Source of the DNA: Chthonomonadaceae bacterium
GTDB taxonomy: Bacteria > Armatimonadota > Chthonomonadetes > Chthonomonadales > Chthonomonadaceae
Reading direction: 5' to 3'
Assembly (NCBI GenBank): GCA_035650735.1
Contig: DASRGZ010000176.1
Span: forward strand, 1 to 43,393
DNA: 43,393 nt
In this document: positions 1-27,923 of the stretch, one piece after another
How positions within the stretch are numbered: the first letter of the stretch is position 1
Layout: every line of letters begins with the position of its first letter
Program-made: the position numbers and the translations under genes
The notes under the pieces: model-generated
The model's database searches: none
Told to the model about the DNA's origin: nothing
What the model saw: the letters and a program-made list of their open reading frames with translations, nothing else

Positions 1-134
1 CAGTCGCAAGGCAGAGGCGCGAGTGTCGCCAGGCGGAGATCGCCAGGCAGAGCCGCGAACCGTTGAGCGGCGTCCCTGGCAGTCGAGCGTGCGTAGTTCC
101 GACCCTAGCAGTCGTAGCGCCGTCCCTTGCAGTC
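1..134 (-). repeat. Triple-nested copy of a 45-50 nt structured hairpin unit (may continue beyond the window edge)
   Basis: The minus strand reads three left ends GACTGC(A/T/C)AGGG.. (134-114, 113-85, 84-) then three right ends ..GCCT(G/T)GCGA. 45-84 is the exact reverse complement of 9010-9049; 113-144 is the exact reverse complement of 21624-21655. Confidence 0.85.
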
Positions 135-265
135 GCTTGGCCGTAGGCCACACAGATGGGTCATTCATGGCCCGGCTGTGAGTTCTATTACAATGCGCCT
201 CCGCCCGTTTTGGCGGCCTTTGCAGGCGTTGTGTGGAAATTGTAAACAGGAACGATTACGTAGAG

Positions 266-1348
266 ATGAACTCGATGGAGACATCCCCGGCTGCCTTACA
301 GCCGCCGTTTAGCGTCCAGCAGATCGCCGCTCTGGTGGGGGGAACGGTGGTCGGCCCTGCGGAGGCAGCGATCACCGGGGTGGCTAGTGTGGAGGAGGCC
401 GAGGCGGGCGATCTGGTCTTTGCCGAGTCGGCGCGCTACCTGGAAGCCGCGCTGCGCTCGAAGGCCGCTGCCGTCCTCGTGCCTGCCGCGTGGGCGGAGG
501 AGCTTCCGCAGGCCGAGAAGCCGCTCATTCTGGTTGCCGACCCGCGCGCCGCGTTTGTCCGGGTGCTGGAAGCGTTTGCGCCGGCCTGGAATTTGCCCGT
601 CGGCATTCACCCCTCCGCGCAGATCGGCCCGAACGCGCGTTTGGGCGAGCAGGTAAGCATTGGCGCGAACGTCATCCTCGGCGAGGCAGTCACCCTCGGC
701 GACCGTGTCGCGCTCTGGCCCGGCGTCTACGTCGGGGACGGCTGCTCCATCGGGGACGAGACCATCCTCTACCCCAACGTCGTCCTGTATCGGGGCGTAA
801 CTATCGGCAAGCGCTGCATTCTTCACGCGGGCTGCGTGATCGGCGCGGACGGCTTCGGCTATATTCCGGTCGGCGCCGCGCTCAAGAAGGTGCCTCAACT
901 GGGCACGGTCGAGATCGGCGACGACGTCGAGATCGGCGCCAACTGCTGCATTGATCGCGCCAAGACGGGCGCGACGGTTATCGGCTCCGGCACCAAGCTG
1001 GACAATCTGGTCCATGTCGGCCATAACGTGCGCGTGGGCCGTTCCTGCCTGCTGATCGCGCAGGTGGGCATTGCAGGCAGCACCACCCTCGGCGACGGCG
1101 TGATCCTGGCCGGGCAGGTCGGCGTGATAGATCACGTCACGGTCGGAGACGGCGTGCGCGTGGGCGCTCAGAGCGGCGTGTTGAACAATGTTCCCGCCGG
1201 GGCGACCTATTTCGGCTATCCGGCGGTGCCCCATGCGCAGAAATTGCGCGAGCTCGCCGCCTGCGGCGCGCTGCCCGACTATATCAAGCGCATCCGGGCG
1301 CTGGAGAAGCGGCTGGAGGAACTGGAAAGAAAGTTAACCGGAGGTTAG
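266..1348 (+). CDS. lpxD: UDP-3-O-(3-hydroxyacyl)glucosamine N-acyltransferase
   Basis: N-terminal uridine-binding domain, hexapeptide repeats, [40 protein letters not shown]. Start uncertain (233 GTG, 266 or 275 ATG). Confidence 0.95.
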
Positions 1349-2221
1349 GTGGAACAGCAGACGCTTGCCCAATCCTTTGCCCTGGAAGGGGTCGGGATGC
1401 ACACGGGAGCCCCTTGCCGCGTCGTCGTGCATCCCGCCGGCCCGGATATAGGCCGTGTCTTTCTGGTCGGGAGGGTGCGCGTACCGGCGCGCGCCGATTA
1501 TGTAGTAGATACGATGCGCTCCACGACGCTGGGCCATGAGGGAGCCTGCATCCGCACGGTAGAGCATCTGCTGTCGGCGCTGTACGGCTGCGGCGTGGAC
1601 AACGCTCTGATCGAGGTGACGGGGCCGGAGATTCCGATCCTGGACGGCAGCGCCGCTCCGTTTGCGGAGGCGATCCTGGCTGTCGGCCTGGAGCAGCAGG
1701 GCCGCGCGCCGCGCGCTCTGGCGCTGTGCGAGTGCATCGAGGTACAGGAGGGCGCCAGCCGCCTGGCAGCGCGGCCCGCGCCCGCGCTGACGCTGGATGT
1801 GGCCACGGAGTTTGCCGAATGGCCCGAGGGGCGGGCCTGCCAGCATGGCCAGATCGGCCCGGAGTGGGCGGCGCGCTATGCCGCCGAGATCGCCCCGGCC
1901 CGCACCTTCGCCTTCCACCAGGAGGTCGAGCGGATACTGGCCGCCGGGCTGGCAAAGGGCGGCTCGCTGGAGAACGCGCTGGTCATCACGCCGCCGCAGG
2001 GGTTTTCCACCGCGCTGCGCCTGCCGGCGGAGTGGTGCGCGCATAAGCTGCTGGACGTGATCGGCGATCTGGCGCTGACCGATGCGCGTCTGGCCCTGCA
2101 TCTGGACGCGCTGCGCCCGGGACATCGCATCAATACGCTGCTGGCGCGGCGCCTGCTAACACTGCTTGATGAGGAGACGCAATCTGCCTGCGCGCAGGCC
2201 AAGAAAGGGGACAACGCATGA
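1349..2221 (+). CDS. lpxC: UDP-3-O-acyl-N-acetylglucosamine deacetylase
   Basis: QQTL..GVGMHTG, TVEHLLSAL, EIPILDGSA, IAPARTF, GGSLENA, HKLLDVIGDL; GGAGG SD before GTG. Confidence 0.95.
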   Translation: MEQQTLAQSFALEGVGMHTGAPCRVVVHPAGPDIGRVFLVGRVRVPARADYVVDTMRSTTLGHEGACIRTVEHLLSALYGCGVDNALIEVTGPEIPILDGSAAPFAEAILAVGLEQQGRAPRALALCECIEVQEGASRLAARPAPALTLDVATEFAEWPEGRACQHGQIGPEWAARYAAEIAPARTFAFHQEVERILAAGLAKGGSLENALVITPPQGFSTALRLPAEWCAHKLLDVIGDLALTDARLALHLDALRPGHRINTLLARRLLTLLDEETQSACAQAKKGDNA

Positions 2222-2874
2222 GTCACGAGGACGCCAGGAGCGGCACAGGCGGCGAACCGGAAAGATACGTGCTGGATATTGAGGACATCCGCGCTATGCT
2301 GCCGCACCGGTTTCCGATGCTGCTGGTGGATAAAATTCTGGAGTTGGAACCGGGCAAACGGGTCGTCGGCCTCAAAAACGTTACCATCAATGAACCGCAT
2401 TTTACCGGCCACTTTCCAGGGCAGGCCATCATGCCTGGGGTGCTGATCTTAGAGTCGATGGCCCAGGTCGCCGGGCTGATGATGCTGGCGCTGCCCGATC
2501 ATGAGGGCAAGCTGGCCTATATCGCCGCGATGGATAAAGTCCACTTCCGCAAGCCCGTCATTCCAGGCGATACCCTCATTACCGAGGCCAATATCCTGTG
2601 GGTGCGCGGGAAGATGGGCAAGGTCCGCATGGTCGCACGCGTCAACGGCGAGGTCCACGCGGAATGTGAAATGACCTTTGCGCTTATGGAGCGGCGCACA
2701 GGCGATCAGACCAAGCAAAAACTTGATACGGTCCGCCGTGAGGCCAACGGCGGGGAAGGCAATTCGGCAGGAGGTCATATCAGTGCCAGGCCCATCCATC
2801 ATCACGTCCCCGGCGATGCCGTCGCCGCAGGACAAGGCAGCCGCGAACTCCGAGGAGCCGGCGGCTGTGAGTGA
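2218..2874 (+). CDS. fabZ: 3-hydroxyacyl-ACP dehydratase with C-terminal extension
   Basis: LPHRFPMLLVD, KNVTINEPHFTGHFP, MPGVLILESMAQ. Confidence 0.95.
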   Translation: MSHEDARSGTGGEPERYVLDIEDIRAMLPHRFPMLLVDKILELEPGKRVVGLKNVTINEPHFTGHFPGQAIMPGVLILESMAQVAGLMMLALPDHEGKLAYIAAMDKVHFRKPVIPGDTLITEANILWVRGKMGKVRMVARVNGEVHAECEMTFALMERRTGDQTKQKLDTVRREANGGEGNSAGGHISARPIHHHVPGDAVAAGQGSRELRGAGGCE

Positions 2875-3682
2875 GCTGCCGCAAAAACCTCGCATCCATC
2901 CGACCGCCATCATTGACCCATCCGCCGAGATAGAGCCCGGCGTCCAGATCGGTCCGTACTGCATCCTCGGCGAAAACGTGTACATTGGGGCGGGAGCGAA
3001 GCTGCATGCCCATGTCACCATCGAGAAAAATACGCGCATCGGGCGCAACTGCGAGGTCTTTGGCGGCGCCATCATCGGCGGCCCCCCGCAAGACTTAAAA
3101 TATAAGGGCGAAAAGAGCTACGTCATCATCGGCGAAAACAATATCATCCGGGAGTGCGTCACCATTCACTGCGCTACCGGCGAGGGCAACATCACCCGCC
3201 TCGGCGATAACAATATGCTCATGGCCTACGCCCACGTCGGGCACAACTGCGATATCGGCAATCACGTCACCATCGCCTCGTATGTGGGCATCAGCGGCCA
3301 CGTGACGGTGGAAGACTATGTCAACTTTGGGGGCATCTGCGGCGTACATCAATATTGTCGTATCGGCACGCTGGCCATGATTGGGGGCATGTCGGGGGTG
3401 GTGCAGGACGTGCCGCCTTTCATGCTCGCCAACGGACGTCCGGCCAAAGTTTATGACATCAACGTGCGAGGCTTGCGCCGGGCCGGGATCAGCGCTAAAG
3501 TGCGCGGCGAGCTGCGCGCCGCCTACAAGCTGCTCTACCGTGCCGACCTCAACGTCTCGCAGGCCATAGAGGCCATCGAGGAGGAGATTGAGAAAAGTCC
3601 CGAGCTGGAGCACCTCCTCCAATTTATTCGCAGCACTAAGAACGGCTACGGCGGGCGCGGCAACAACCCGTCCCCCCTCTAG
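2783..3682 (+). CDS. lpxA: UDP-N-acetylglucosamine O-acyltransferase
   Basis: IHPTAII, hexapeptide repeats, PQDLKYKGE, IRECVTIH, HVGHNC, HQYCRIG, DVPPF. Start is GTG 2783 (AGGAGGT SD) or GTG 2867 (GAGGAG SD). Confidence 0.93.
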   Translation: MPGPSIITSPAMPSPQDKAAANSEEPAAVSELPQKPRIHPTAIIDPSAEIEPGVQIGPYCILGENVYIGAGAKLHAHVTIEKNTRIGRNCEVFGGAIIGGPPQDLKYKGEKSYVIIGENNIIRECVTIHCATGEGNITRLGDNNMLMAYAHVGHNCDIGNHVTIASYVGISGHVTVEDYVNFGGICGVHQYCRIGTLAMIGGMSGVVQDVPPFMLANGRPAKVYDINVRGLRRAGISAKVRGELRAAYKLLYRADLNVSQAIEAIEEEIEKSPELEHLLQFIRSTKNGYGGRGNNPSPL

Positions 3683-3688
3683 GGCGCT

Positions 3689-5053
3689 ATGAACATCGCG
3701 ATCTTTTCCGGGGAACTTTCGGGCGACCTGATCGGCGGGGCGCTGGCGCAGGCGATGCGCCGCCGCAGCCCGGAAGCGGCGCTGTGGGGGCTGGGCAGCG
3801 CGGCCATGCGGGCTGCCGGCGTCGAGCTGCTGGCCGACAGCGCGGCGTGGGGCGCCATCAGCATCACCGAGGCGGTGGGCAAAGTTCCCGGCCTGCTCTT
3901 TAACGTGCTGCCGAAGGTCAAGCGCGCCTTACGTGAGCGCCGTCCCGATGTGGTCGTGCTGATCGATTTTGGCGCGTTTAATGTGCGGGTGGCGCGTGCG
4001 GCCAAAGCGCTGGGCCTGAAGGTGCTCTACTACTTCCCGCCGGGCGCCTGGCGGCGCACCGGCACGCACGGGGCGGAGCTTGGACAAATTACCGACGTGC
4101 TGGCGACGCCGTTCCCCTGGTCAGCGGAGCGCTTTCGGCAGCTGGGCGCTAACGCCGTCTGGGTGGGGCATCCGCTGCTGGAGCGCGTGCAGACCACCAT
4201 GTCGCGGGCCGAGTTTGCGGCGCAGTTTGGCATGGACCCGGCCCGGCCCGTCATCGGGATGCTGCCAGGGAGCCGCCATCAGGAGGTAGCGCATCTGATG
4301 CCGACGCTGCTCAGCGCCGCGCGGTTGATTTATCGGCAGGTGCCGGAGGCGCAGTTTGTGGTGGGGGTGGCGCCCTCGATCTCCCAGGAGACCATCGCCA
4401 GATACCTGACCGGACACCAGGAACTGCTGGATCGGCTGGGAGAGATCTGGCACGAGTTTACCCAGGAGGCGGAGACGAAGGTCTGGCGGCGGATGGCGGG
4501 CGCGGCCAATGCCCTCTCGCCCGCGGGCCCCCCGATGCTGGTGACTGCGGGCGGCGTGCTGGTCTCGCCGAAAGCCCTGGAGCAGGAATTGGAGGCGCAG
4601 CGGCGCTCCGAGCGGCTGCATGCGCGCGCCCAAGAGGCGCTCCCGCCGACGGTGCTGGCCAAAGGTTTGACCTATGAGGTGATGGCCCACAGCGATGTGC
4701 TGCTGACCTGCTCCGGTACGGCCACGCTGGAGGCCGCCATCTTCGCAACGCCGATGGTCATCCTGTACCGAGGCTCCAAGATCATGGAGCTTGAGTACAA
4801 GCTGCGCGGCCTGCATAAGAAGCTGGAGTTTATCGGCCTGCCCAATATCCTGGCAGGGTGCTCCATCGTGCCGGAGCTCATTCAATGGGCGGCCACGCCG
4901 GAGGCCATCGCCGAACACGCCTTGAATCTGCTCAACAACCTGGAGACGCGCCACCGCGTTAAGCAGGACCTGCGCGCCGTGACCGAGGCGCTGGGAACGC
5001 CGGGTGCCAGCGACCGCACTGCCGATCTCGTACTGGAGTTGGCCAAGACCTAA
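3689..5053 (+). CDS. lpxB: Lipid-A-disaccharide synthase with internal insertion
   Basis: SGELSGDLIG, VGHPL, LPGSRHQEV, SGTATLEAA, IGLPNILAG, VPELIQ. Confidence 0.93.
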   Translation: MNIAIFSGELSGDLIGGALAQAMRRRSPEAALWGLGSAAMRAAGVELLADSAAWGAISITEAVGKVPGLLFNVLPKVKRALRERRPDVVVLIDFGAFNVRVARAAKALGLKVLYYFPPGAWRRTGTHGAELGQITDVLATPFPWSAERFRQLGANAVWVGHPLLERVQTTMSRAEFAAQFGMDPARPVIGMLPGSRHQEVAHLMPTLLSAARLIYRQVPEAQFVVGVAPSISQETIARYLTGHQELLDRLGEIWHEFTQEAETKVWRRMAGAANALSPAGPPMLVTAGGVLVSPKALEQELEAQRRSERLHARAQEALPPTVLAKGLTYEVMAHSDVLLTCSGTATLEAAIFATPMVILYRGSKIMELEYKLRGLHKKLEFIGLPNILAGCSIVPELIQWAATPEAIAEHALNLLNNLETRHRVKQDLRAVTEALGTPGASDRTADLVLELAKT

Positions 5054-5061
5054 GGAAATCT

Positions 5062-6882
5062 ATGGACACGCAGCGCAGACTGCTTTCCTATCTGAAGCCA
5101 CATGTGGGCACGCTGGGCCTGGGGCTGGTCTGTACCGCCGGCACGGCGCTCATCACGGCGGGCGTCGGCTGGCTGATCCAGCGCGCCATTGATGCCATGG
5201 GCGATGGGCGCGTCGGCCACCTCAATTTCCTCTGCGCTGCGGTGCTGCTCGTCTTTGTGATCAAGGGCATCTTCTCGTTCGGGCAGAGCTACCTGCTGTC
5301 GCTGGTCGCCAACCGGATCGCCACGCGGATGCGCGATGAGATCTATGCCCATCTGCATACCCTCTCGCTCTCCTTTTTCAATCGGCGGCGCACCGGCGCG
5401 ATCATGTCCACACTCACTAACGACGTGCCGGTGATTCAGAATGCGGCGATGGCCGTGCGCGATGTCGTCGCCGCCCCGATCACCATCCTGGTCAGCCTGT
5501 CGGCGCTGTTCTGGGTAAGTTGGCGCCTGGCGCTCGTCTCCCTGATCTTCATCCCGTTCATGGCGGCGGTGATCGCGCGCATCGGACGGCGCATCCGCAC
5601 TATCTCCGGCGTGGTGCAGGGCAAGCTCGCCGACGTGACCACGATTATTGAAGAGACGGTCGCGGGCGTGCGAATCATCAAGTCTTTTGCCGCCGAAGAC
5701 CATGAAATCTCGCGCTTCAGCGCCGAAAACCACCGCACGCTGCACGCCGTGCTGAAGGCGGCGCGCCGCAGCGCCCAGCTGCGGCCCCTCATCGAGTTCA
5801 TCGGCGCGTTCGGCATCGCGCTCGTCCTTTTTCTGGGCGGAAACTACGTCGCCAACACCAACCGCTACCAACAGGAGCAGCAGACGGCCTGGATCAAGGC
5901 GCATCCGGGCGTCTCCGACGTTCCGGCGCCCTCCGCCTTTCCGGTGCCTCCAGGCGGCATGACTCAGGGCGAGCTGATCGCCTTCCTCTATCTGCTCAAC
6001 GCGGTCGCGCGGGCGGCGGGCGATGTCGGGGGCATCGCGACGCTGCGGGCGCAGGCGCTGGCGGCGGCCCGGCGCATCTTCGAGGAGGTGCTCGACGTCG
6101 AGTCGGAGGTCAAGGAGAAGCCGGACGCCCTTCCGATGCCGCCGCTTCAGGGGCATATCTGCTTCGAGAACGTCTGGTTCCGCTACAGCCCGGACGGGCC
6201 GGACGTGTTGAAGGGCATTACGTTTGAGGTGCGCCCTGGCGAGGTGGTCGCTCTGGTCGGGCGCAGCGGGACCGGCAAAAGCACGCTGGTAGACCTGATC
6301 CCGCGCTTCTACGACCCGACTCAGGGCCGCATCACCATTGACGGCATAGACATCCGGGAGGTCAAGCTGGAAACGCTGCGCCGCCAGATCGGGATCGTGC
6401 CGCAGGAGACCTGGCTGTTTGCCGGGACGCTGCGCGATAACATCGCCTACGGCAACCGCGACGCCACCGACGAACAGATCCAGAACGCCGCTGCTTCCGC
6501 CAACGCCTACTTCATCGAGGGCATGGAGAAAAAGTTTGATACCCTGGTCGGGGAGCGGGGCATTCGGCTGTCGGGCGGCGAGCGGCAGCGCATCGCCATC
6601 GCCCGCGCCATTCTGATGAACCCGCGCCTGCTCATTCTCGACGAGGCGACCTCCTCGCTGGATGCCTCCTCCGAGGCGCTGGTGCAGGAGGCCCTGGACG
6701 AACTGATGAAGGGCCGCACGACCATCGTGATCGCCCACCGCCTCTCAACCATCATCAATGCCGACCGCATTCTGGCGATGCAGGATGGCCGCATCGTGGA
6801 GATGGGTTCGCACCACGAATTGATGGCCGCCGGGGGTTATTACGCGCAGCTCTACGAGACGCAATTGCGCGGGTTCGAGTAG
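5062..6882 (+). CDS. msbA: ABC exporter (fused TMD-NBD), MsbA-like lipid A flippase
   Basis: Walker A GRSGTGKS, signature LSGGERQR, LILDEATSSLD, N-terminal TM domain; position in the lpx cluster. Confidence 0.85.
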   Translation: MDTQRRLLSYLKPHVGTLGLGLVCTAGTALITAGVGWLIQRAIDAMGDGRVGHLNFLCAAVLLVFVIKGIFSFGQSYLLSLVANRIATRMRDEIYAHLHTLSLSFFNRRRTGAIMSTLTNDVPVIQNAAMAVRDVVAAPITILVSLSALFWVSWRLALVSLIFIPFMAAVIARIGRRIRTISGVVQGKLADVTTIIEETVAGVRIIKSFAAEDHEISRFSAENHRTLHAVLKAARRSAQLRPLIEFIGAFGIALVLFLGGNYVANTNRYQQEQQTAWIKAHPGVSDVPAPSAFPVPPGGMTQGELIAFLYLLNAVARAAGDVGGIATLRAQALAAARRIFEEVLDVESEVKEKPDALPMPPLQGHICFENVWFRYSPDGPDVLKGITFEVRPGEVVALVGRSGTGKSTLVDLIPRFYDPTQGRITIDGIDIREVKLETLRRQIGIVPQETWLFAGTLRDNIAYGNRDATDEQIQNAAASANAYFIEGMEKKFDTLVGERGIRLSGGERQRIAIARAILMNPRLLILDEATSSLDASSEALVQEALDELMKGRTTIVIAHRLSTIINADRILAMQDGRIVEMGSHHELMAAGGYYAQLYETQLRGFE

Positions 6883-6938
6883 ATATACCGGCAAGCCAAT
6901 CCCTAGCGCCCTGGCTTAGTAAGTGCCGGTAAACCAAT

Positions 6939-7181
6939 CGCCCCTGGCCCCGCCTTCGCAAGGTTCAATGGCGGACCCTTGTTTTCGAGGGAATAGAATT
7001 CCTTCGCTGTATGGCCGTCCGGGCCGCGTGTCCCTGCGGGACACTCTCTGCCTATCGGCAGGCGGGACGTGTCCCGCAGGGACCCACAGCCGCAGGCTCT
7101 ATAGCGAAGGGTTTCTAACCCATCGCTATTCCATTCCATCGCAAAACCGATCTGTCCGCCCCTGGCCCCGCCTTCGCAAGG
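6939..7181. repeat. Long palindromic insert bounded by identical 25-bp direct repeats
   Basis: CGCCCCTGGCCCCGCCTTCGCAAGG at 6939-6963 and 7157-7181. Between them are nested inverted repeats, including a perfect 15-bp GTCCCTGCGGGACAC/GTGTCCCGCAGGGAC pair. Confidence 0.85.
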
Positions 7182-7209
7182 GCAGTAATCGGGGCAGAGG
7201 CTCAACGCT

Positions 7210-7962
7210 ATGTCCGCAGAACCGATTCCCCTTCCCGCCCAGGCCGAGCGGGAAGCCAAAACCGAGCTAACGGAGGAGGAGCGCGCCCGCATTGAAAGGC
7301 GTTGCCGCTTCCTGGGCTGGCTGATCTATACGCTGGTCCGCGCGATCTTTGGCACGCTGTGCCTGCGCTTCGAGAACGCCGAAGGGCTGGAGACGGGCGG
7401 GAAGGGAGCGATCTTCGTTACCTGGCATGGCCGCTCGCTCATTCCGGCCAACGTGTTCCGCAACCGGGGCTACTGGGCGCTCATCTCCCTTTCCCGTGAC
7501 GGGGAATTGCAGAACAACATCTTCCGGCGCTTCGGCTTTCAGACGGTGCGCGGCTCGACGGGGCGCGGCGGCATCAAGGGCGCGCTGCAAATGGCCCGCA
7601 AGGTCAAGGAGGGTGGTGTCCTCGCCTTTACGCCGGATGGCCCACGCGGGCCGACTCATAAGGTACAATTAGGCGTAATCTTAATGGCGGAGAAGTCCGG
7701 TGCGCCGATCATTCCGCTGGGCGTGAGCGCCAGCCGCCGCTGGCTGATGCGAAGCTGGGACTCCTACATGATCCCCAAGCCCTTCGCCCGCGCCTACTTC
7801 CTGGTCGGGCCGCCGATCTTCGTGCCCCCCGATCTGGACGATGCCGGGCGCCAGACGTATGCCGAGCAGGTGGAGATCGCCATCAACCGCCTGGAGCGCG
7901 AGGCCGAGGCCCGCGCCGGCTTTCCCGACTATCCTGCCACGTGGCGCACGGAATTGTCATAA
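7210..7962 (+). CDS. DUF374 / LpxJ-like lysophospholipid acyltransferase family protein
   Basis: IFVTWHG, LISLSRDGE, VRGSTGRGG, AFTPDGPRGP, SWDSYMIPKPF; lies between msbA and waaA. Confidence 0.85.
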   Translation: MSAEPIPLPAQAEREAKTELTEEERARIERRCRFLGWLIYTLVRAIFGTLCLRFENAEGLETGGKGAIFVTWHGRSLIPANVFRNRGYWALISLSRDGELQNNIFRRFGFQTVRGSTGRGGIKGALQMARKVKEGGVLAFTPDGPRGPTHKVQLGVILMAEKSGAPIIPLGVSASRRWLMRSWDSYMIPKPFARAYFLVGPPIFVPPDLDDAGRQTYAEQVEIAINRLEREAEARAGFPDYPATWRTELS

Positions 7963-7992
7963 CTTGCGATTGCACGCTGGAGGCGAGGCTCT

Positions 7993-9816
7993 ATCTACTA
8001 CGCGCTGTATAACTCCATATTGGCGCTGGGTTCGCCGCTGTTGGGTGCGTACCTGCTGCAGCGGTACCTATCGGGCAAGTCGCGACCGGGCTGGCGCGAG
8101 CGTTGGGGGCATCTGCCGGAGACGCTGCGCTGGCAGCCGGACGGCAGGCCGCGCGTCTGGATACATGCCGTTTCGGCGGGCGAGGTCGTGGCGGCGGCGC
8201 CGATCCTGCGGGAATTGCGTGCGCTCCTACCGGAACATGAACTGCTGCTTTCGGTCATCACGCCGGGCGGTTACGAGATGGCGACGCAGCAGGCATCAAA
8301 GTACGTGGATGCGCTCTTCTACTTCCCGTTTGACCTGCCCTGGGTGGCGCGGCGCGTGGTGGAGACGATTCGCCCGCAGGTATTCGTCAGCCTGGAAAGC
8401 GAACTATGGCCCAACGTCCTGCACGAACTGAAGCGGCAGGGTGCGGCGACCGTAATGGTCAACGGGCGCCTCTCGGAAAAGAGTTTCCGCCGCGCGCAGA
8501 GGTTCGGGCGCGGGATATTCCGCTGGGCGCTCGGTAACGTGGACCGGCTGCTGATGCAATCGGAGGCGGACGCGGAGCGAGTACGTGCGCTAGGCAACCT
8601 GGCCGAGCCGGGGCGCGTGGCCGTGCTCGGCAACTCCAAATTTGACCAGGAGATCAAGCGGCTGACGCCGGAGGAGACTCTGGCCCTGCGCCGGGAACTG
8701 CGGCTGCCTGAGGAGGCGCCCGTCTTTGTGGCCGGAAGCACGCGCAGCCCCGAAGAAGAGGCGCAGGTCATTGCGGCTTACAAGGCGATGCAGGCGCAGG
8801 TTCCCGAGCTCTGCCTGCTGATCGCGCCGCGCCACATCGAGCGCGCCGAAGAGATCGCTGCGGCCATGCGGTCGGCGGGCCTGTCGCCCGTGCGCCGCAC
8901 GCAATTGGCCCGCCCCTTAGAAGACCTCACCCCCGACCCCTCTCCTTCGCAAGGAGAGGGGAGTGGCCCTCACCCCCTGCCCCCCTACTGCCAGGGTCGG
9001 GCCTCAACGGACTGCCAGGGACGCCGCTCAACGGTTCGCGGCTCTGCCTTGCGACACCCCTCCGCCTTGCGATCCACGCTGCGGGAGAGGGGGAACCGAG
9101 AAGCCGGGTCCCCCCCTTCCCTCGCAGGGAAGGGGGACGGGGGGTTAGGTCAAAAGCAGAGGGGAGAGCAGAAGCCTTGTTCTACCCTCCTCCCCGGCCC
9201 TTCTCCCTTGCAGGGAGAAGGGGGAACAGAAGCCAGCACGACCTCTGCCCACGTAGGTGGGCAGCGGGCCTGGCTAGGCGGAGGTTCCGAACCGTTGAGG
9301 AACCGACTCTTGCAGCGCCCAACAGCGGCAGGGTTTAGCCTGCCGGGGGCCGGGGGGTTAGGTGAGGCTACCGTCCGGCATCTCATCCTGGATACGCTGG
9401 GCGAACTGGCGAACGTCTACGCGGTGGCGACATTCGCCTTTGTCGGCAACAGCTTCGAGCCGGTCGTCAAGGGCGGCGGTCAGAACTTGCTCCAGCCTCT
9501 CGCGCACGGCAAACCGGTGCTCTTTGGCCCGCGCACGGCCACGATTCGCTCGGAAGTGGCACTGGCGGTGGGGGCAGGCGTCGGGTTCCAGGTGGCCGAG
9601 GGCGCGGCGCTGGCGGCGGAAGGCTTGCGCCTGCTCTCCGATGTGGCGGCCCGCCAGGAAATCGAGCGCCGTGCCCTCGCGCTGATCGCCGCCAACCAGG
9701 GCGTCTCGGCCAGATACGCGCAGGCGGTGGCGGAGATGGCAAACGAATCGCGTCGCCCTTTGGGGAACCCCTCGGCTCTCGGCCCGAAGGCGCGGCTGAG
9801 GAGACAGCAGCCGTGA
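7993..9816 (+). CDS. waaA: 3-deoxy-D-manno-octulosonic acid (Kdo) transferase with 147-codon repeat-derived insertion
   Basis: WIHAVSAGEV, FPFDLP, ESELWPN, NGRLSEKS, GNSKFD, AGST, IAPRHIER, DTLGEL..Y, FVGNS. Start inferred at ATC 7993; the ORF track uses TTG 8020. Confidence 0.93.
   Translation: MYYALYNSILALGSPLLGAYLLQRYLSGKSRPGWRERWGHLPETLRWQPDGRPRVWIHAVSAGEVVAAAPILRELRALLPEHELLLSVITPGGYEMATQQASKYVDALFYFPFDLPWVARRVVETIRPQVFVSLESELWPNVLHELKRQGAATVMVNGRLSEKSFRRAQRFGRGIFRWALGNVDRLLMQSEADAERVRALGNLAEPGRVAVLGNSKFDQEIKRLTPEETLALRRELRLPEEAPVFVAGSTRSPEEEAQVIAAYKAMQAQVPELCLLIAPRHIERAEEIAAAMRSAGLSPVRRTQLARPLEDLTPDPSPSQGEGSGPHPLPPYCQGRASTDCQGRRSTVRGSALRHPSALRSTLRERGNREAGSPPSLAGKGDGGLGQKQRGEQKPCSTLLPGPSPLQGEGGTEASTTSAHVGGQRAWLGGGSEPLRNRLLQRPTAAGFSLPGAGGLGEATVRHLILDTLGELANVYAVATFAFVGNSFEPVVKGGGQNLLQPLAHGKPVLFGPRTATIRSEVALAVGAGVGFQVAEGAALAAEGLRLLSDVAARQEIERRALALIAANQGVSARYAQAVAEMANESRRPLGNPSALGPKARLRRQQP
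8923..9363. repeat. Composite repeat array (REP-like palindromes plus nested hairpin units) inserted in frame in waaA
   Basis: Begins ACCTCACCCCCGACCCC and ends GGGGCCGGGGGGTTAGGT. Modules are shared with intergenic arrays at 13470, 20221, 25931, 27704 and 42935. Confidence 0.92.
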
Positions 9817-10931
9817 GCGCTGCGGAGGAGTATCTGCTCTCGGTAGCGCATGGGCGGCGTGGGCTGGTTCCGGCCCTGCTGCGCGGCGGGCTGAGCGCGC
9901 TCGCCCCGGTCTACTGCGCCGGGCTGAAGACCTACCTGCTGCCGTATCGTCTGGGCCTTCGCAAGCGCGCGCGCCTGCCCTGCCCGGTCATCAGCATTGG
10001 CAACCTGACCACGGGCGGAACGGGCAAGACGCCCATGACGCAGACGCTCTGCCGCCTGTTACGGGAACGGGGCCTGCATGTCGCCGTGCTCAGCCGGGGC
10101 TACGGCGGCAGACACGAATATGGCTGCGCGGTCGTCTCCGATGGGCAGAAGACGCGGCTGAGCGCGGAGGAGGCGGGCGACGAGGCGTACCTGCTGGCTA
10201 AAACGCTGTCCGGCGTGCCCGTCGTGGTCGGCAAGGACCGGCGCGTGACCGGCGCATTGGCCTGGGCGCAGTTTCAGCCGGACGTGCTCCTCCTGGACGA
10301 CGGCCTTCAGTTCTGGCAGTTGCATCGCGATCTCGATATCGTTCTGCTCAACGCCTGCGCGCCCTTTGATAACGGCTGGACGTTCCCGCGCGGGCTGCTG
10401 CGCGAGCCGCCCTCCCATCTACGGCGGGCCGGGATCGTCGTGCTGACCAACGGAAAGCGCGCCGGGCCGCAGCAGACGCAGGCGGTACGTGATATCGCGC
10501 AGCGATTAGCGCCGGGCCGTCCCCTATTTACTGCCGACCTGGAGCCTGTCGGCCTGCGCGCCATCGCGATGCGAGCCGAGTACCCGGTCTGCTGGCTGGA
10601 GGGACGCCGGGTGTCGGCGCTGTCGGCCGTCGGTAATCCCGACTCCTTCGAGACGAGGATCACCGAGTCAGGCGGCGTGCTGGCGACGCGGTTCCGCTTC
10701 CGCGACCATCACGCGATCACGCTGGCGGACCTGGAGCGCGTCATTTCGGAATCTTGCGCGGCGGGCGCGGAGGCCGTAATCACCACCGAAAAGGATGCGG
10801 TCAAGATCGCCCCGCTCAAAAGCTCGCTGCCGCTGCTGGCCCTAAAGGTCACGATGCAGGTGGATGGCGAAGCCGCCTTCCTGGCGGCGGTACAGGAAGC
10901 AATACAGCATGACGGATCACACCACGCCTGA
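9813..10931 (+). CDS. lpxK: Tetraacyldisaccharide 4'-kinase
   Basis: PVISIGNLTTGGTGKTP, VLSRGYGG, GDEA, LLDDGLQ, PRGLLREP, TTEKDAVK. Confidence 0.95.
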   Translation: MSAAEEYLLSVAHGRRGLVPALLRGGLSALAPVYCAGLKTYLLPYRLGLRKRARLPCPVISIGNLTTGGTGKTPMTQTLCRLLRERGLHVAVLSRGYGGRHEYGCAVVSDGQKTRLSAEEAGDEAYLLAKTLSGVPVVVGKDRRVTGALAWAQFQPDVLLLDDGLQFWQLHRDLDIVLLNACAPFDNGWTFPRGLLREPPSHLRRAGIVVLTNGKRAGPQQTQAVRDIAQRLAPGRPLFTADLEPVGLRAIAMRAEYPVCWLEGRRVSALSAVGNPDSFETRITESGGVLATRFRFRDHHAITLADLERVISESCAAGAEAVITTEKDAVKIAPLKSSLPLLALKVTMQVDGEAAFLAAVQEAIQHDGSHHA

Positions 10932-11931
10932 GGCGAACGGCACGGCGGTGCCGCTGCGCAAGCGCCTGGAGCGCGCCGCAGGACGGATCGGGCTGCGCCT
11001 GGTGGTCGGCCCGGTGCGGATGATGCCGCTGCCGGTGGCGCGCGCGTTTGGCCGGGGGCTGGGCGGAGTGCTGTTCCACTCCCTGGGCCGCTATCGGCGC
11101 GTGGCGCTCAAAAACCTGGCCCTCATCTATGGCGACCTCCCGGAGGCGGAGCGTGCCCGAATGGCCCGCGCCGTGTTCCGGCACTTCGGCGAGATGGCCG
11201 CCGAGTTCGTCAAGCTGCCGCAGCTGGATCGCGACGCTATCGAGAGATTGACGCGCGTGGAGGGCGAGGAGAACCTATGCCGCGCCTTCGAGGCCGGCAA
11301 GGGCGTGCTGCTGATTACCGGGCACTTCGGCAACTGGGAGTTTCTGGGGCGCTGGCTCTCGACGCACGGTTACCCGCTCAATGTCGTCGCCCGCGACGCC
11401 CGCGACCCTGCCGCGACCAAGTTCCTGGCCGACACGCGCGAGGGCAACGGCGCGCAGGTGCTCTATCGGGGCAGCTCGGCCCGCGCCGTGCTGCAATGCT
11501 TGAAGAAGAACCAGATCGTCGCCCTGCTGCCCGATCAGAACGCCGCCGACGTAGTCGTTCCCTTTCTGGGCCAGCCGACCGGCACAGTGGACGGCCCGGC
11601 GGTCCTCCATCTGCGCACCGGAGCGCCGCTGCTGTTTAGCTGGTGCGCGCGCACGCCCGACGACCGATTTCAGATCACCTTCGAGCCGCCGGAGGTCGTG
11701 ACACCGACCGGCGACCATGCCGCCGACATCGCGCGCGTGATGACGCTCATTAACGCGCGGCTGGAGGCGCAAATCCGCCGCAGTCCGACCCAATGGCTCT
11801 GGCTGCATGACCGCTGGAAGGCATCGCCGGGGGTTTTCCCCGACGGCGAGGAGCAAGCCCGAATATTGAAAATGCCTCACAATAAATACCATCAGGAGAT
11901 GCGCGACCGCCATGACTCTAGCCGCCGTTGA
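10909..11931 (+). CDS. Lipid A late acyltransferase (LpxL/HtrB family)
   Basis: GVLLITGHFGNWE, LLPDQN, VPFLG, IRRSPTQWLWLHDRWK. Confidence 0.9.
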   Translation: MTDHTTPEANGTAVPLRKRLERAAGRIGLRLVVGPVRMMPLPVARAFGRGLGGVLFHSLGRYRRVALKNLALIYGDLPEAERARMARAVFRHFGEMAAEFVKLPQLDRDAIERLTRVEGEENLCRAFEAGKGVLLITGHFGNWEFLGRWLSTHGYPLNVVARDARDPAATKFLADTREGNGAQVLYRGSSARAVLQCLKKNQIVALLPDQNAADVVVPFLGQPTGTVDGPAVLHLRTGAPLLFSWCARTPDDRFQITFEPPEVVTPTGDHAADIARVMTLINARLEAQIRRSPTQWLWLHDRWKASPGVFPDGEEQARILKMPHNKYHQEMRDRHDSSRR

Positions 11932-13000
11932 TATGGCGTCCGTGCGGCGCGTGCTCATCATCAAGCTGAGCGCCCTGGGCGACATCATCCATGCGCTGCC
12001 CGTCTCTGCCGCCCTGGGCGAAGCCTATCCGCATCTGGAGCTGACCTGGGCCGTTGAGGAGGGGTTTGCGCCGCTAGTGGAGGGCAACCCCTACCTGACC
12101 GATGTGCTCACGCTGCCGAAGGTGCGCAGCCGCCAGTTACGCTCGGTATCGTTCCACCAGGACTACCTGCGCCGCCTGCGGGATGTCCGTCACCGCCGCT
12201 TTGATCTCACGCTCGACCTACAGGGGCTGACCAAGAGCGCGGTGATAGCCGCCGCATCGGGCGCGCGGGTGCGCCTGGGCTATCACCACCAGCGCGAGGC
12301 GGCGTCCTGGCTGGTGCGTCCCGTGCCGCCCCGCCCGGAGAGCACGCACGTGGTCGATCACTACCTGGACGTGGCCCGGTTCCTGGGTGCCGATCCGGAG
12401 ACGGTGCGGTTTCCGTTTCATATCCCGGAAGTGGACGATGCGATGGTGCAGGCCATGCTGTGCGAGGCGGGACTCGATCCGTGCGCGCCCTTTGTCGCCT
12501 TCAATCCGGCGTCCGCTCTGGCAATCAAGCAATGGGACGCGGAGAACTATGCCGCCCTGATGGACGCGGTGCAGGAGCGGCTGGGGCTGCCCGTGGTCCT
12601 GGTCACGGCGGATTGGGTCGTTGCGGACCGGGTGGCGGCGGCGGCGCGGCGGCCTTTCGCCAATCTGTGCGGGCGCACGACCTTGAAGCAGTTGGCGGCG
12701 GTCCTGCGCCGATGCGCTCTCCATATCTGCGGGGATACCGGCTCGGGGCATCTGGCGGCGGCGCTGGGGCGTTCGGTTATCGCCCTCATGGGGCCGACGA
12801 ACCCGGATCGCGCCTGCCCCTACGGGCAGCGGGAGAACGTGCTCAGCCTGCGCCAATTCTGCGGCGCGACCTGCAATGGGCACCGCTGCCAGTTTGCGCG
12901 TCCCCGCTGCCTGGAGGCTATCGGCGTGAGTGATGTGCTGGCGCGCATCGAACGGCTGGCCGGCAGGGCGCTGGAATGGGCAAGCGGCCCGGCGCGCTAA
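11912..13000 (+). CDS. GT9 LPS heptosyltransferase (WaaC-like)
   Basis: VLIIKLSALGDIIHALP, DLQGLTKS, GDTGSGHLAAALG, GPT. Confidence 0.88.
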   Translation: MTLAAVDMASVRRVLIIKLSALGDIIHALPVSAALGEAYPHLELTWAVEEGFAPLVEGNPYLTDVLTLPKVRSRQLRSVSFHQDYLRRLRDVRHRRFDLTLDLQGLTKSAVIAAASGARVRLGYHHQREAASWLVRPVPPRPESTHVVDHYLDVARFLGADPETVRFPFHIPEVDDAMVQAMLCEAGLDPCAPFVAFNPASALAIKQWDAENYAALMDAVQERLGLPVVLVTADWVVADRVAAAARRPFANLCGRTTLKQLAAVLRRCALHICGDTGSGHLAAALGRSVIALMGPTNPDRACPYGQRENVLSLRQFCGATCNGHRCQFARPRCLEAIGVSDVLARIERLAGRALEWASGPAR

Positions 13001-13033
13001 CGGCAGGATGGGACGGCTCAGAATAGGAAACTA

Positions 13034-13462
13034 ATGGAGACAGAACAGGCGCGCACAACGCAACTAATATATCGTGAGGAGCCCGATCTGACGGCGGAAG
13101 CGTTCGTGGATGTTCTGGAAAGGTCCGGGCTGGCGGCACGTCGGCCGGTGGACGACCTGGAGCGCATCCGGCGGATGCTGGCCCATGCCGACCTGATCCT
13201 CTGCGCCCGGGCTGGGGAACGGCTAATTGGCGTTGCGCGGACCATCAGCGACTTTGCTTACTGCGCCTACCTCTCGGACCTGGCCGTGGATCGGGCGTAT
13301 CAGCGGCAGGGCATCGGCAAGGAGCTCATCCGGCGCTCGCACGAGATTCTGGGGGAGGAGGTCATGCTGCTGCTGCTCTCCGCGCCGGCTGCGCACGCTT
13401 ACTACCCGCACATCGGCTTCGCCAAAGCGGACAACGCCTGGTTCCTTCCGCGCCAGCGGTAA
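13034..13462 (+). CDS. GNAT family N-acetyltransferase
   Basis: AYLSDLAVDRAYQRQGIGKELI (motif A), YYPHIGF. Confidence 0.88.
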   Translation: METEQARTTQLIYREEPDLTAEAFVDVLERSGLAARRPVDDLERIRRMLAHADLILCARAGERLIGVARTISDFAYCAYLSDLAVDRAYQRQGIGKELIRRSHEILGEEVMLLLLSAPAAHAYYPHIGFAKADNAWFLPRQR

Positions 13463-13469
13463 CTGGTTT

Positions 13470-13726
13470 ACCTAACCCCCCGGCTCCCACTGCCAGGGTC
13501 GGGCCTGCAATAATTCGGCCCTCCGCCTCGCAACACCTTGCGACCCTACTCGCTCGTACCTCGCTAGAGAAGGGGGGACCCGGCTTCTCTTTTCCCTTCT
13601 CCCTTGCAGGGAGAAGAGACGGGGATGAGGGGAGATAAAAGAGAACGGGAAAACCTGGGAGTGCCGGGCCTCCCCTCTCCTTACGAAGGAGAGGGGCCGG
13701 GGTGAGGTCTACTGGGGGGTGAGGGC
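13470..13726. repeat. Composite intergenic repeat array
   Basis: ACCTAACCCCCCGG start, hairpin unit 13489-13543, AGGGGGGACCCGGCTTCT module and CCCCTCTCC..GGAGAGGGG palindromes. Confidence 0.88.
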
Positions 13727-13805
13727 ATTAGCCGTCCACGGCGAAGCAGGAAAATGCAGCAACAATCATCAATAGTACGCAAAGTTTGCACAGCGTAATG
13801 GAGTT

Positions 13806-13901
13806 TTGGTAATCCCTCCCAACCGTGTTGACGCTTCTCATGGAGCGCACGCTTTTGAGATGTATCCACACGATTGGGGGTGTCTACGGGAGTTTTACCA
13901 A
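13806..13901 (+). promoter_or_regulatory. Long imperfect 5'-UTR hairpin that occludes the kdoO RBS and start codon
   Basis: Pairings TTGGTAA/TTACCAA, TCCC/GGGA(G), CTCCCAACCGTGT/ACACGATTGGGGG, TCTCA/TGAGA, GAGCG/CGCTT. Confidence 0.5.
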
Positions 13902-14845
13902 TGGAAGTGATTCCGATGGATACGAATCGGATAGAGGAGAGCGAGTACCGTCTCCGGCTATGCGAGCAGCTGGAGCGGGGCAATATCCTGCTGCTGCCCC
14001 ACGCGCCGTTTGTGCCCTCGGAGGCGGACAGCGCCTTTTTGCGGCAACAGCACCAGTCCGAAAAGGCTTATCATAAGAATATCGCTTATAAGCCGCGCCT
14101 CAACCGCACGACCGGAGTGAAGGCGCTCAACACGGAGGATGCCGAGCGCATGAACGCGATCCTAGGCGACTATTCGCGCGGCGCGGTGGCGTTCCTGAGC
14201 GCGCTGTTCCCCAATTATGCGCGCGCCTGGCAGGTGGATTACGCCAGCTTTCGGCCCGTGGAGGAGGCGGGACGGATGCTGCCCCTGCGGCACCGCAACG
14301 ACCTGATGCACGTGGATGCGTTCCCTACCCGTCCCACCCACGGCGGGCGCATTCTGCGGGCCTTCACGAACCTGAATGCCGACCGTACGCGCGTCTGGGC
14401 CACCGCCGATTCGTTCGAAGACCTTGCCGCCCGCTATGCCCGCGACGCCGGGCTGGATCGCGTTACCAGCCCGCAGGCAGCGGTCGCCCGCTCCATCGCG
14501 AAGTTAGCGCGTAAAATCGGTATGCGCGTCCCGGATCGCTCTCCCTACGACCAGTTTATGCTTCAGTTCCATCACTATCTCAAAGCCAACGCCGAGTTCC
14601 AGAGGACGGGACAGCGCCGCACGCTGGCCTTCGCGCCGGGCGCAACCTGGATCACCTTCACCGACCAGGTGGCCCATGCCGTGCTTTCCGGGCAATACGC
14701 TCTGGAGCAGACCTGTATCGTCCCGTTCCAGGCCATGACGCTGCCGGAACTGGCCCCGGTGGCGGTGCTGGAGCGGCTGTCAGGGCGGCCTCTCATCGCG
14801 CACCCGTCTGTGCCTGCCGCTGCGCCGGAAAAACTGGCCGTCTGA
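13901..14845 (+). CDS. kdoO: Kdo 3-hydroxylase (Kdo to Ko dioxygenase) family
   Basis: HKNIAY, ASFRPVEE, LMHVDAFPTRP..GGRILRAFTN, RSPYDQFMLQFHHYLK, FTDQVAHAVLSGQYALEQT. Confidence 0.88.
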   Translation: MEVIPMDTNRIEESEYRLRLCEQLERGNILLLPHAPFVPSEADSAFLRQQHQSEKAYHKNIAYKPRLNRTTGVKALNTEDAERMNAILGDYSRGAVAFLSALFPNYARAWQVDYASFRPVEEAGRMLPLRHRNDLMHVDAFPTRPTHGGRILRAFTNLNADRTRVWATADSFEDLAARYARDAGLDRVTSPQAAVARSIAKLARKIGMRVPDRSPYDQFMLQFHHYLKANAEFQRTGQRRTLAFAPGATWITFTDQVAHAVLSGQYALEQTCIVPFQAMTLPELAPVAVLERLSGRPLIAHPSVPAAAPEKLAV

Positions 14846-14859
14846 GCGTCTGTACGGTG

Positions 14860-17302: not shown

Positions 17303-20211
<2,909 letters not shown>

Positions 20212-20220: not shown

Positions 20221-20462
20221 GGCCCCCACCCCCTTCCCACTGCCAGGGTCGGCGCTCAACGGTTCGCGCCACTGCCAGGGTCGGCAAGGTTACGGCCCTT
20301 GCCTCCGCCTGGCCACACCTAGCGATCCCCAAGAACAGGGGAGGGGAGAGCAGAAGCCGGGTCCCCCCTTCCCTGTGAGCAAAGCGAACGTTAGGGTCGC
20401 TAGGCGGAGGGGCGAACCACATTGTAGCCCCGACCCTGGCAGTGGGGGCTGGGGGGTTAGGT
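20221..20462. repeat. Composite intergenic repeat array with nested hairpin units
   Basis: Unit 20239-20325 contains unit 20271-20316; inverted unit at 20397-20443; ends GGGGGGTTAGGT. Confidence 0.9.
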
Positions 20463-20484
20463 CAAAAGGAGAAGGGGAAAGGCC

Positions 20485-21560: not shown

Positions 21561-21798
21561 CAGGGTCCTTCGGTTTTCCGCCCCTCTCCGCCGGGCACGG
21601 AAAGTACCCGGCTATGGGGCCTAACGGCCAAGCGACTGCAAGGGACGGCGCTACGCTTGCTCGCGCCTTTGCCTTGCGACTGGCGGACGCGCCTGTCCCG
21701 CAGGAGTTTCCGTCCGAAGGACGCTTGGCGGCGCAGCCGCCCTCTAGAAGGGTACTTTCCGTGCCCGGCGGAGAGGGGCGGAAAACCGAAGGACCCTG
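21561..21798. mobile_element. Non-autonomous MITE-like element, 238 bp, with 49-bp perfect terminal inverted repeats
   Basis: CAGGGTCCTTCGGTTTTCCGCCCCTCTCCGCCGGGCACGGAAAGTACCC at 21561-21609 and its exact reverse complement at 21750-21798; AG on both flanks. Confidence 0.85.
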
Positions 21799-25870: not shown

Positions 25871-25930
25871 TACGGCCTCAGCCCCCATGCCCCTTCGGGT
25901 CACCCTCTCGCATGAGAATGCCTCTCCCCT

Positions 25931-26238
25931 CTGCCGGTGGACCTAACCCCCCGGCCCCCACTGCAAGGACGAGCGGCCTGCTTACGGGCCTGATGGTTGG
26001 GCCTGCCGGTGGACCTAACCCCCCCGGCCCCCACTGCAAGGGTCGGCGCTCAACGGTTCGCGCCACTGCCAGGGTCGGGCCTGCAATAATTCGGCCCTCC
26101 GCCTCGCGACACCTTGCGACCCTACAAGGGAAGGGGGGACCCGGCTTCTGCTCTCCCCTCTCGTTGTGCAGGAGAGGGGCCGGGGGTGAGGTTTCTCCCC
26201 TCTCCCGCAGCGTGGGAGAGGGGTTGGGGGTGAGGGCC
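25931..26238. repeat. Composite repeat array between convergent genes
   Basis: 38-bp direct repeat (25931-25968, 26003-26041), nested units 26033-26119 and 26065-26110, and REP-like palindromes. Confidence 0.9.
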
Positions 26239-26248
26239 ATTGGAGAAG

Positions 26249-27676: not shown

Positions 27677-27703
27677 TCTCTTGTCTGCGCCCCGCCGTCC
27701 GTT

Positions 27704-27855
27704 ACCTAACCCCCCGTCCCCCATTGCTAGGGTCGGGGCTGCCATGGTTCGCCCCTCCGCCTAGCGACCCTACCCGCTCGTTCCTCGCTAGGGAAGGGGG
27801 GACCCAACTTCTGCTCTCCCCTCTCCTTTAGAAGGAGAGGGTACGGGGGTGAGGT
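27704..27855. repeat. Composite repeat array with imperfect terminal inverted repeats
   Basis: ACCTAACCCCCCGT...GTACGGGGGTGAGGT; single hairpin unit at 27723-27767. Confidence 0.88.
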
Positions 27856-27923
27856 CTTTAGCCGCCCGAAAACCTCGTCCCGTATCTCCTGGGTTCGACG
27901 GGGCAGCCGAGGATGTAGTTCCC

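Follow-up and report, generated by a model that had tools for sequence, protein, structure and literature searches.

How does a bacterial genome come to carry three copies of one short non-coding sequence, each lodged inside the next? The question is raised by positions 1-134 of contig DASRGZ010000176.1 (C176) of a Chthonomonadaceae bacterium (Armatimonadota), which is analyzed here over its entire length of 43,393 nucleotides (nt), hereafter called the window, and which belongs to a genome of 6.52 Mb in 224 contigs with 63% G+C (G000). An initial annotation, made from the letters of the window, had parsed this segment on the minus strand as three copies of a unit of about 45 nt nested inside one another, and had explained it by successive insertion of a tiny mobile unit that prefers its own copies or other hairpins as targets. 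[quoted passage not shown]

Three units nested at the end of the contig

Followed along the minus strand from 134 to 1, the segment consists of three units of 44-45 nt, each interrupted by the next. The left part of the outer unit comes first (133-113, 21 nt; left arm ACTGCAAGGG, 5' stem ACGGCGC and loop bases TACG) and is followed by the left part of the middle unit (112-84, 29 nt; ACTGCTAGGG TCGGAAC TACGCACGCTC G), which comprises the left arm, the 5' stem TCGGAAC, the complete loop and base 1 of the 3' stem. The innermost unit is intact (83-40, 44 nt; ACTGCCAGGG ACGCCGC TCAACGGTTC GCGGC TCTGCCTGGCGA). Behind it the middle unit resumes with TC and its right arm TCCGCCTGGCGA (39-26, 14 nt), without the stem bases TTCC that a canonical host has, and the outer unit closes with CA, the loop remnant CTC, the 3' stem GCGCC and the right arm TCTGCCTTGCGA (25-4, 22 nt). 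Among hosts restored in silico (see below), the 21 / 22 split of the outer unit is seen in 21 and the 29 / 14 split of the middle unit in 39, and the uninterrupted form of the middle unit, ACTGCTAGGGTCGGAACTGCGCACGCTCGTTCCTCCGCCTGGCGA, is present at other places in the genome. In the innermost unit (40..83) an outer stem of 6 base pairs (bp; GCCAGG/CCTGGC) encloses an inner stem of 5 bp (GCCGC/GCGGC) and a loop of 10 nt; it scores 62.1 bits (E 3.9e-13) against R1, a covariance model of the unit, and its fold as single-strand DNA is predicted at -12.8 kcal/mol (z -2.76).

The nest sits in a larger REP-like repeat, here called H4 (...CCGGGCCATGAATGACCC...GGCCTACGGCCAAGCG), and occupies the H4 position that reads TC in empty copies. 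On the minus strand the left H4 flank covers 134..190, base 134 being G, and has at least three matching places in the relative G001 (85%); of the right H4 flank, CTGGCGGACG, only the opening bases CTG are present (1..3), where the contig ends. That the nest abuts a contig end is a caveat on it. No Rfam family matched in a search of the window.

A short imperfect palindrome in hundreds of copies

The unit is a non-coding, imperfect palindrome of 44-45 nt without a gene of its own, built of ACTGCNAGGG, 2 bases, a 5-bp stem, a loop of 10-11 nt, the second stem half and TCYGCCTNGCGA, with one group of units that combines a 5-nt loop with a longer stem. Its ends, ACTGC... and ...GCGA, are invariant. 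This genome has 310 exact matches to the pattern, and its reversed version, the control, is found in none of the 41 genomes searched; since the junctions at which a left arm runs into another left arm, the mark of a nest, likewise number 276 against none in the reversed control, the pattern is not a product of chance. With one mismatch allowed per arm, 468 copies are intact, and once interrupted hosts are included the total rises to about 695 units, i.e., ~0.5% of the genome.

Pairing rather than sequence is what the middle of the unit retains. The inner stem is fully paired over its 5 bp in 402 of 456 intact units, with at least nine different stem sequences, and among 23 representative units changes on both sides are found at four of the five pairs (94.5% of cells paired, compared with 77.9% in shuffles, none of 500 shuffles being as high). 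With 90.6% of their cells paired, the arms, GCNAGG and CCTNGC, amount to terminal inverted repeats, the variable N of which covaries only partly, as it is paired in 224 of 468 units where 132 would be expected by chance. Units of the same-genus genome G001 have retained the arms and possess quite different middles. Judged from these sequences, the arms are in our view the ends that are conserved, and in the middle any hairpin might do.

Same-strand nesting at four positions

Nesting is common and strongly patterned. Counted as strings of left (L) and right (R) arms, again with one mismatch allowed per arm, the genome holds 176 LR, 70 LLRR and 32 LLLRRR arrangements; by depth, 287 loci have one level, 137 two, 42 three and 2 four. 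More than half of the intact units (248 of 468, 53%) lie directly inside another unit, all of them on the same strand, and none of the 468, when checked for opposite-strand flanking arms, is part of an inverted nest. Taking out the inner unit with the following 2 nt and putting back 4 nt restores 227 hosts to canonical length, 223 of them to 44 or 45 nt, and the tandem arrangement LRLR occurs only 5 times, which upholds the earlier contention that tandem duplication does not give the L-L-L-R-R-R order.

The break falls at index 21 (21 hosts), 24/25 (94), 29 (39) or 32/33 (70) in 224 of the 227 restored hosts, and the two host pieces (21+22, 25+18, 29+14 and 33+10) always add up to 43 for a host of 45 nt. 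All four positions are in the 3' half of the hairpin, with 20, 16, 12 or 8 host bases remaining rightward. The piece inserted invariably starts with ACTGC. Four bases of the host (CTTG, TTCG, TTCC or TCCG) disappear and two (CA or TC) are added, a net change of -2 nt. CA follows the ...GCGA of the inner unit in 90 of 102 loop-site nests, in 79 of 94 that are located behind the stem and in 6 of 6 at site 21; TC does so in 40 of 43 nests at site 29. The tiny mobile unit first proposed therefore stands as a discrete insertion but not as a clean one, given the host bases lost and the CA or TC gained. The four lost tetranucleotides can also be laid out as adjacent windows of one four-base register, a regularity seen post hoc that may be coincidental.

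Canonical units have G where nests have the A of CA. A host A at this position is found in 2 of 468 units, and a right arm TCCAC in 4 of 468, so that the A of the junction arises with the insertion; the possibility that hosts already carried it beforehand was rejected on the same counts. In most cases the left part of a host is joined by a right remnant of its own subfamily (e.g., ACGCCGC...TCAACGG by CA-CGGC-TCTGCC), as the interruption of a pre-existing unit predicts. Orphan right tails and absent left parts are also common; nesting generates direct repeats, and later deletions between these would account for them. At 14 loci, often contig ends, a module CATCAACATCAAGGTGGAAGGGTTGCGAATACTGGCCG stands between an intact unit and a unit lacking its left arm (among them C62:15921-15990 and loci at the ends of C131, C187, C194, C195 and C206).

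Empty and filled sites in other repeats

That the unit is an insertion follows from five other repeat families, many members of which are free of it exactly where others carry it. In H4 (GCCAAGCG-TC-CTGGCGGACG) 66 sites are empty and 27 filled by a solo unit, others being filled by nests; 97 are empty in H2 (CCCCCGGCCCCC-TT-CCCTAC) and 80 in H5 (GCTGTGGGGC-CTGC or CTAC-GGCCCGC), while H7 has 12 empty and 5 filled sites and the hairpin H1 (CCCCTCCCC-AAGAACA-GGGGAGGGG) about 16 and 8, respectively. Two bases are replaced by the unit in H4, H2, H7 and H1 (TC, TT or GC among the replaced pairs) and four in H5, i.e., filled and empty sites differ by 2-4 replaced target bases, without target-site duplication. 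Slippage deletion between GCGA repeats was considered as a source of the empty H4 sites and rejected, as it would leave GCGACTGG where GCGTCCTGG is observed.

Taking DNA that occurs at least five times as repeated, 357 of 423 loci are flanked by repeats on both sides, compared with 7% of random positions, and a single locus of the 423 has two unique flanks. With 53% of its intact copies nested although units make up only ~0.5% of the genome, and with most loci set between repeats, a preference of the unit for its own copies and other repeats holds, at least descriptively.

Composites copied whole

The window nest is a member of a larger set. Its three-level composite (21 / 29 / 44 / 14 / 22 = 130 nt) is present in 13 copies, which are 93.8-100% identical (median 97.7%) and have 60-nt flanks only 55% and 42% identical; every copy occupies the TC site of an H4 repeat, and several H4 subtypes are represented. 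Such near-identity between dissimilar flanks indicates that the composite was copied as one piece bounded by the outermost arms, both arms being retained in a unit that carries a nest. The nest at 1-134 was not built in place; the locus received a ready-made composite. Successive insertion, the initial explanation of this segment, is accordingly backed by the interrupted units and the empty sites and does not describe what happened at this very locus, which carries one copy of 13.

Subfamilies, named by their stems, differ in how they are found. GGGGC and GGCGC are mostly solo. More loosely, units that combine a TTACG loop with a longer stem (GGCAG, GGCAA and GCCGG) look like "invaders", 132 of 160 being nested, and those of the GGGGC, GGCGC and GGGCC types like "hosts", mostly solo or serving as such.

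A burst confined to one lineage

A covariance-model scan, which had been suggested along with a count of nested and solo copies, was run with R1 over 42 genomes of the family, many of them incomplete metagenome-assembled genomes (MAGs) in which repeats assemble badly. It detected units in four: at least 149 matches in G000, 9 in G001, 7 in G010 and 1 in G019, with none in the 38 others of this set. Nest junctions number 276 in G000, none in G001 and G010 and one in G019, so both the burst of copies and the nesting are specific to the G000 lineage. The G019 junction belongs to a two-level nest on the last 141 nt of a contig (C128:8017-8158) and is 100% identical to G000 repeats; G019 is of a different genus and the rest of that contig has no match to G000, hence, going by sequence, this contig end may be chimeric or mis-binned. 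A G010 unit adjoins a gene 83% identical to one on contig C17 of G000, and the site is not the same. Among the matches listed in a wider contig scan, a Chthonomonadaceae MAG contributes one genuine unit, and five in other phyla look like chance.

Public metagenomes were compared over window positions 1-20000. In four runs from three studies (two soil, two mine) contigs match the unique parts of the window with zero differences, and three of these runs may be the source of this assembly. The contigs stop at 136, 8966, 9327, 13513 and 13858, none bridging a nest. Joints among them (e.g., 8984 to 9074 with TCTC between) are of high depth and represent paralogous empty copies, not alleles.

The REP-RAYT setting and a possible route of insertion

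H4, the repeat in which the window nest is lodged, has a partner in this genome. Three matches to Y1_Tnp were found, of which the first is an IS200-like gene resembling REP-associated tyrosine transposases (RAYTs) that encodes 166 amino acids (C166:80029-80526; 81.9 bits). Inverted H4 copies, both with empty TC sites, lie on either side of it (C166:79890-80600), and H4 on its other strand reads GGCC-GTAG-GCC beside a GC-rich hairpin; together, H4 and this gene have the classic REP-RAYT ("REPtron") layout. A different repeat, CTCCGCCCGGCCCTAAAGGACCGGGCTGCGGACGGCAAGCCCC, borders the second gene (C166:12362-13046) on either side; its 14-mers occur up to 70 times, which puts it at about 70 copies. 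The third match is a fragment beside a TnpB-like gene. Around these three loci a scan for the arms of the unit returned only chance matches with one mismatch, and around the Y1/TnpB loci no parent insertion sequence with the ends of the unit was found, an absence that an assembly in 224 contigs does not prove. Of the 42 family genomes, 28 encode relatives of the RAYT-like protein, often in multiple copies, and only 4 contain the unit.

In this setting it is conceivable that the unit moves as a folded single strand, which would be cut and rejoined by a hairpin-recognizing enzyme acting in trans, the most plausible candidate being a RAYT-type Y1/HUH protein; the arms would then be cis-acting ends and the inner hairpin would need only to pair. 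According to Corneloup 2021 (PMC8266576), cleavage of single-stranded REPs by RAYT enzymes takes place at C|T, and with one enzyme at C|A as well, after which the cut ends are joined to other 3'-OH ends with GTAG as a guide. Tried on our junctions, this rule fits the right-hand ones (GCGAC|A... and GCGAC|T...) and had to be rejected for the left-hand ones and for the lost bases, which is why we put forward single-strand hairpin cutting and joining by such an enzyme only tentatively, with the odds somewhat against it.

Several observations weigh against the picture of an actively inserting unit and its supposed enzyme. The rule at the junctions is not uniform, two bases being replaced in most families, four in H5 and four by two in self-nests, and no left flank is conserved at inserted units, unlike at IS200/IS605 targets (the final two bases are CC in 179 cases, GG in 110, CG in 82, TG in 38 and CT in 29, with others besides). 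The fold of the whole window nest is little better than that of shuffles (z -1.70). No transposase is tied to the unit: at 19 Y1/RAYT loci of G000, G001, G010 and G019, examined with 1.7-3.5 kb around each, there is no unit (best model match E 0.32), which makes it an orphan inside a REP family rather than the REP of any RAYT found, and 14 open reading frames (ORFs) lying between inverted units resemble ordinary genes when inspected by eye, without a search against protein families. Aligned to PDB 2ec2, the 166-residue protein has H-V-P in place of the HUH motif H-I-H, and the second Y1_Tnp gene is split by a frameshift over two frames (locus ORFs 1379-1657 and 1477-1812); from their sequences, both RAYT-like genes of this genome look impaired. 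Comparison with relatives adds no allele: an empty orthologous site was not seen, the nearest genome, G001 of the same genus, being ~75% identical with broken synteny (its lpxD and lpxC, ~75% identical to those of G000, are on different contigs and another gene abuts lpxD upstream), and the four metagenome runs contain the same sequence free of variants.

Other difficulties concern the hosts themselves. Among loop-class hosts the right remnant fully matches the 5' stem in only 35 of 102, and the stem is fully paired in 53 of 94 of the other large class, compared with 402 of 456 intact units. There is also a link between host type and inner type (mutual information 0.344 vs 0.210 and 0.522 vs 0.241, with none of 2000 shuffles as high), and inner subfamilies are tied to sites (GGCAG 56 times at site 25, GGCAA 47 times at 33 and GCCGC 40 times at 29). 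Because the types are linked, copying of whole nests contributes a good deal to their abundance, and much of the linkage could come from amplification of a few founder nests.

Alternative explanations

A stronger claim than ours would make the unit an autonomous-looking "hyperparasite" of REP systems, a single-strand hairpin of 45 nt integrating strand-specifically into REPs and into copies of itself, with a ruler of four-base steps counted from the 3' end of the host copy, a fixed scar and an undescribed route of hairpin integration; its scar, four bases out and CA in, would fit no described transposase, recombinase or HUH reaction. We regard this as doubtful.

Host and inner linkage is also what would be expected had there been only a few founder accidents, perhaps one per class, after which composites multiplied whole and their halves were exchanged by gene conversion, with no preference of the unit for itself. 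There are only four junction types, with CA or TC almost invariant, host stems are often mismatched with their remnants, and single combinations have become numerous, i.e., the 13-copy composite and the pair of a GGGCC host with a GGCAG inner unit, present in 36 copies. Yet the same junction is found in differing hosts (CGGC-TCTGCC, GCCC-TCCGCC and CCCC-TCCGCC, each with the fitting left part), and as the hosts differ in sequence right beside it, almost no homology is available for conversion at the right junction. The two large classes show 26 + 26 coarse combinations of host and inner unit, five unrelated repeat families are occupied too, and at least 60 coarse combinations of host stem and inner stem, together with the same junction beside differing host bases, oppose a pure "four founders" model. 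We therefore judge this explanation unlikely in its full form.

Template switching during replication would do without any enzyme, and none was found: a nascent strand stalls in a hairpin, copies another unit and returns, in the manner of quasi-palindrome mutagenesis. Junction bases are lost and altered, not duplicated, every event lies in the 3' half of a hairpin, and the orphan tails and absent left parts suggest frequent slippage between direct repeats, all of which such a process could produce. The inserted 5' end is nevertheless exact (ACTGC), without microhomology to left flanks that read GG, CC or CG; orientation is strictly same-strand, junctions are identical across many different hosts, and empty and filled sites coexist in unrelated repeats, so that we hold template switching to be very improbable. 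As for false nested paths threaded by a short-read assembler through repeat k-mers, the window nest and 4 of the 13 composite copies do lie at contig ends (within 3 nt in the latter case) and contigs of the four public runs end at repeat borders (136, 8966, 9327 and 13513) with nests unbridged, but about 180 nests, each below 131 nt, lie inside contigs between unique genes and follow a balanced, type-matched grammar (25/18, 33/10, 29/14 and 21/22), with left and right host parts from the same subfamily, that random mis-joins would not give, and an artefact is scarcely credible.

Other copies and neighboring features in the window

The three two-level nests reported earlier were all confirmed on the plus strand. 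At 8987..9072 (24 / 44 / 18) the host is cut in the loop after ...TCAACGG and continues with CA + CCCC-TCCGCCTTGCGA; its inner member, of the same type as the innermost unit of the window nest, is the copy formerly given as 9010-9055, here delimited to 9011-9054 (+). At 20239..20325 and 26033..26119 (both 32 / 45 / 10) hosts hold a 45-nt unit, in the former case cut after the 3' stem and continuing with CA + CCTAGCGA. An uninterrupted unit of the outer type, placed at 21634-21682 by the initial annotation, was found at 21635..21679 (+) as a solo unit in an H4 site. Further solo units are located at 27723..27767 (+) and 20397..20443 (-), an intact unit followed by an orphan tail, CA-CCTTGCGA, at 13489..13533 (+), and a divergent unit (37.5 bits) at 9271..9316 (-).

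The nest at 1-134 is adjoined by an ORF at 233-1348 that, with three further ORFs, resembles lpxD-lpxC-fabZ-lpxA, naming being by eye. Positions 8914-9250, 13465-13710, 20330-20480, 25930-26240, 27690-27860 and 42920-43190 are intergenic mosaics of several other short palindromic repeat families (e.g., CCCCTCTCC...GGAGAGGGG and GACCTAACCCCCCGGCCCCC...), and the 45-nt unit is embedded in them. Two pairs of direct repeats, 26383-26682 / 28013-28312 and 26847-26948 / 28483-28584, are 77-78% identical and about 1630 nt apart, and probably reflect tandem paralogous genes.

Relation to known small repeats

REPs and REPINs with their RAYTs are the closest comparison. As portrayed in sections of Bertels & Rainey 2011 (PMC3116915) and of PMC8266576, they share with our unit a short, GC-rich, imperfectly palindromic sequence, high copy number, intergenic location, a hairpin kept by compensating changes and strand-specific behavior. 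The unit itself sits inside H4, a repeat paired with a Y1_Tnp gene in this genome. It differs in that its consensus has no GTAG-type tag on either strand, in that it flanks no RAYT gene in four genomes and replaces target bases, and in that it is nested in the same orientation where REPINs form inverted dimers (our counts covering same-strand nests and tandems only). REP elements with RAYT (TnpA-REP) genes are reportedly also treated in Nunvar 2010 (PMC2817692).

REPs inside other small palindromes are on record, as in Thermomicrobium roseum, where GTAG-23 lies in CCGSSCC...GGSSCGG (Di Nocera 2013, PMC3733652, in part). The CGTC-tagged repeats treated in the same source are, like our unit, orphans without a dedicated transposase, and the unit with CA begins on its reverse strand with TGTC, a variant tag named there; this TGTC-like tag exists only where CA follows the unit (251 of 468). 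From the portions of that account at hand, CGTC repeats have 8-9-bp stems starting with A-T pairs, loops of 4-5 nt and CCA tails, in contrast to the two G-C-rich stems, the internal loop, the loops of mostly 10-11 nt and the lack of a CCA tail in our unit. The word "nested" is absent from its main text, and self-nesting over 3-4 levels is not mentioned in those portions.

The small dispersed repeats (SDRs) SDR4-6 of the Nostocaceae, insofar as parts of PMC4390886 and PMC5861425 depict them, are likewise very small, taken as mobile and without known transposase, and SDR5 inserts precisely between bases 3 and 4 of the palindromic HIP1 (PMC4390886, in part). With 21-27 nt (families SDR1-8) and a cyanobacterial lineage they are set apart from a unit of 45 nt, a comparison by description and not by sequence, and neither a rule of four positions nor loss of bases with gain of CA is described for them in those parts. 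Elhai et al., in 2008 (Genome Res 18:1484), reportedly saw SDRs inside SDRs.

With MITEs, including the nested ones of plants, the unit has in common a non-autonomous nature, inverted-repeat-like ends, a folded structure and insertion into earlier copies; it differs in having no target-site duplication and no parent insertion sequence that we could find, and its 45 nt are below usual MITE sizes. Palindromic elements of the IS200/IS605 kind also insert strand-specifically without target duplication (here 248 same-strand nests against no inverted one), but the unit has no conserved tetra- or pentanucleotide on its left flank. In short, it behaves like REPs, REPINs and very small mobile repeats, yet departs from each of these families in features by which we compared them, and it is best described as a self-nesting, REP-like orphan repeat that is specific to one lineage and inserts by an unusually regular rule. 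Within the limited body of literature searched, no paper on self-nesting bacterial repeats with fixed positions was found.

Significance

The spread of REPs and of other very small repeats is poorly understood, and this genome offers an unusually rich, base-by-base record of hundreds of insertions, in which empty sites, filled sites and interrupted hosts occur together in one genome, with two REP-RAYT systems at hand for comparison. The rule that emerges is simple and testable: same strand, four positions, fixed scar. Should an enzyme be found, a self-contained hairpin integration site of 45 nt might even be of practical interest. Such repeat-rich genomes will break short-read assemblies exactly at nests and repeats. 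For the biology of these elements, it follows that the arms probably act as cis-acting ends, that a nest can move as one piece, that one very small repeat can insert into another and that small repeats can parasitize other small repeats.

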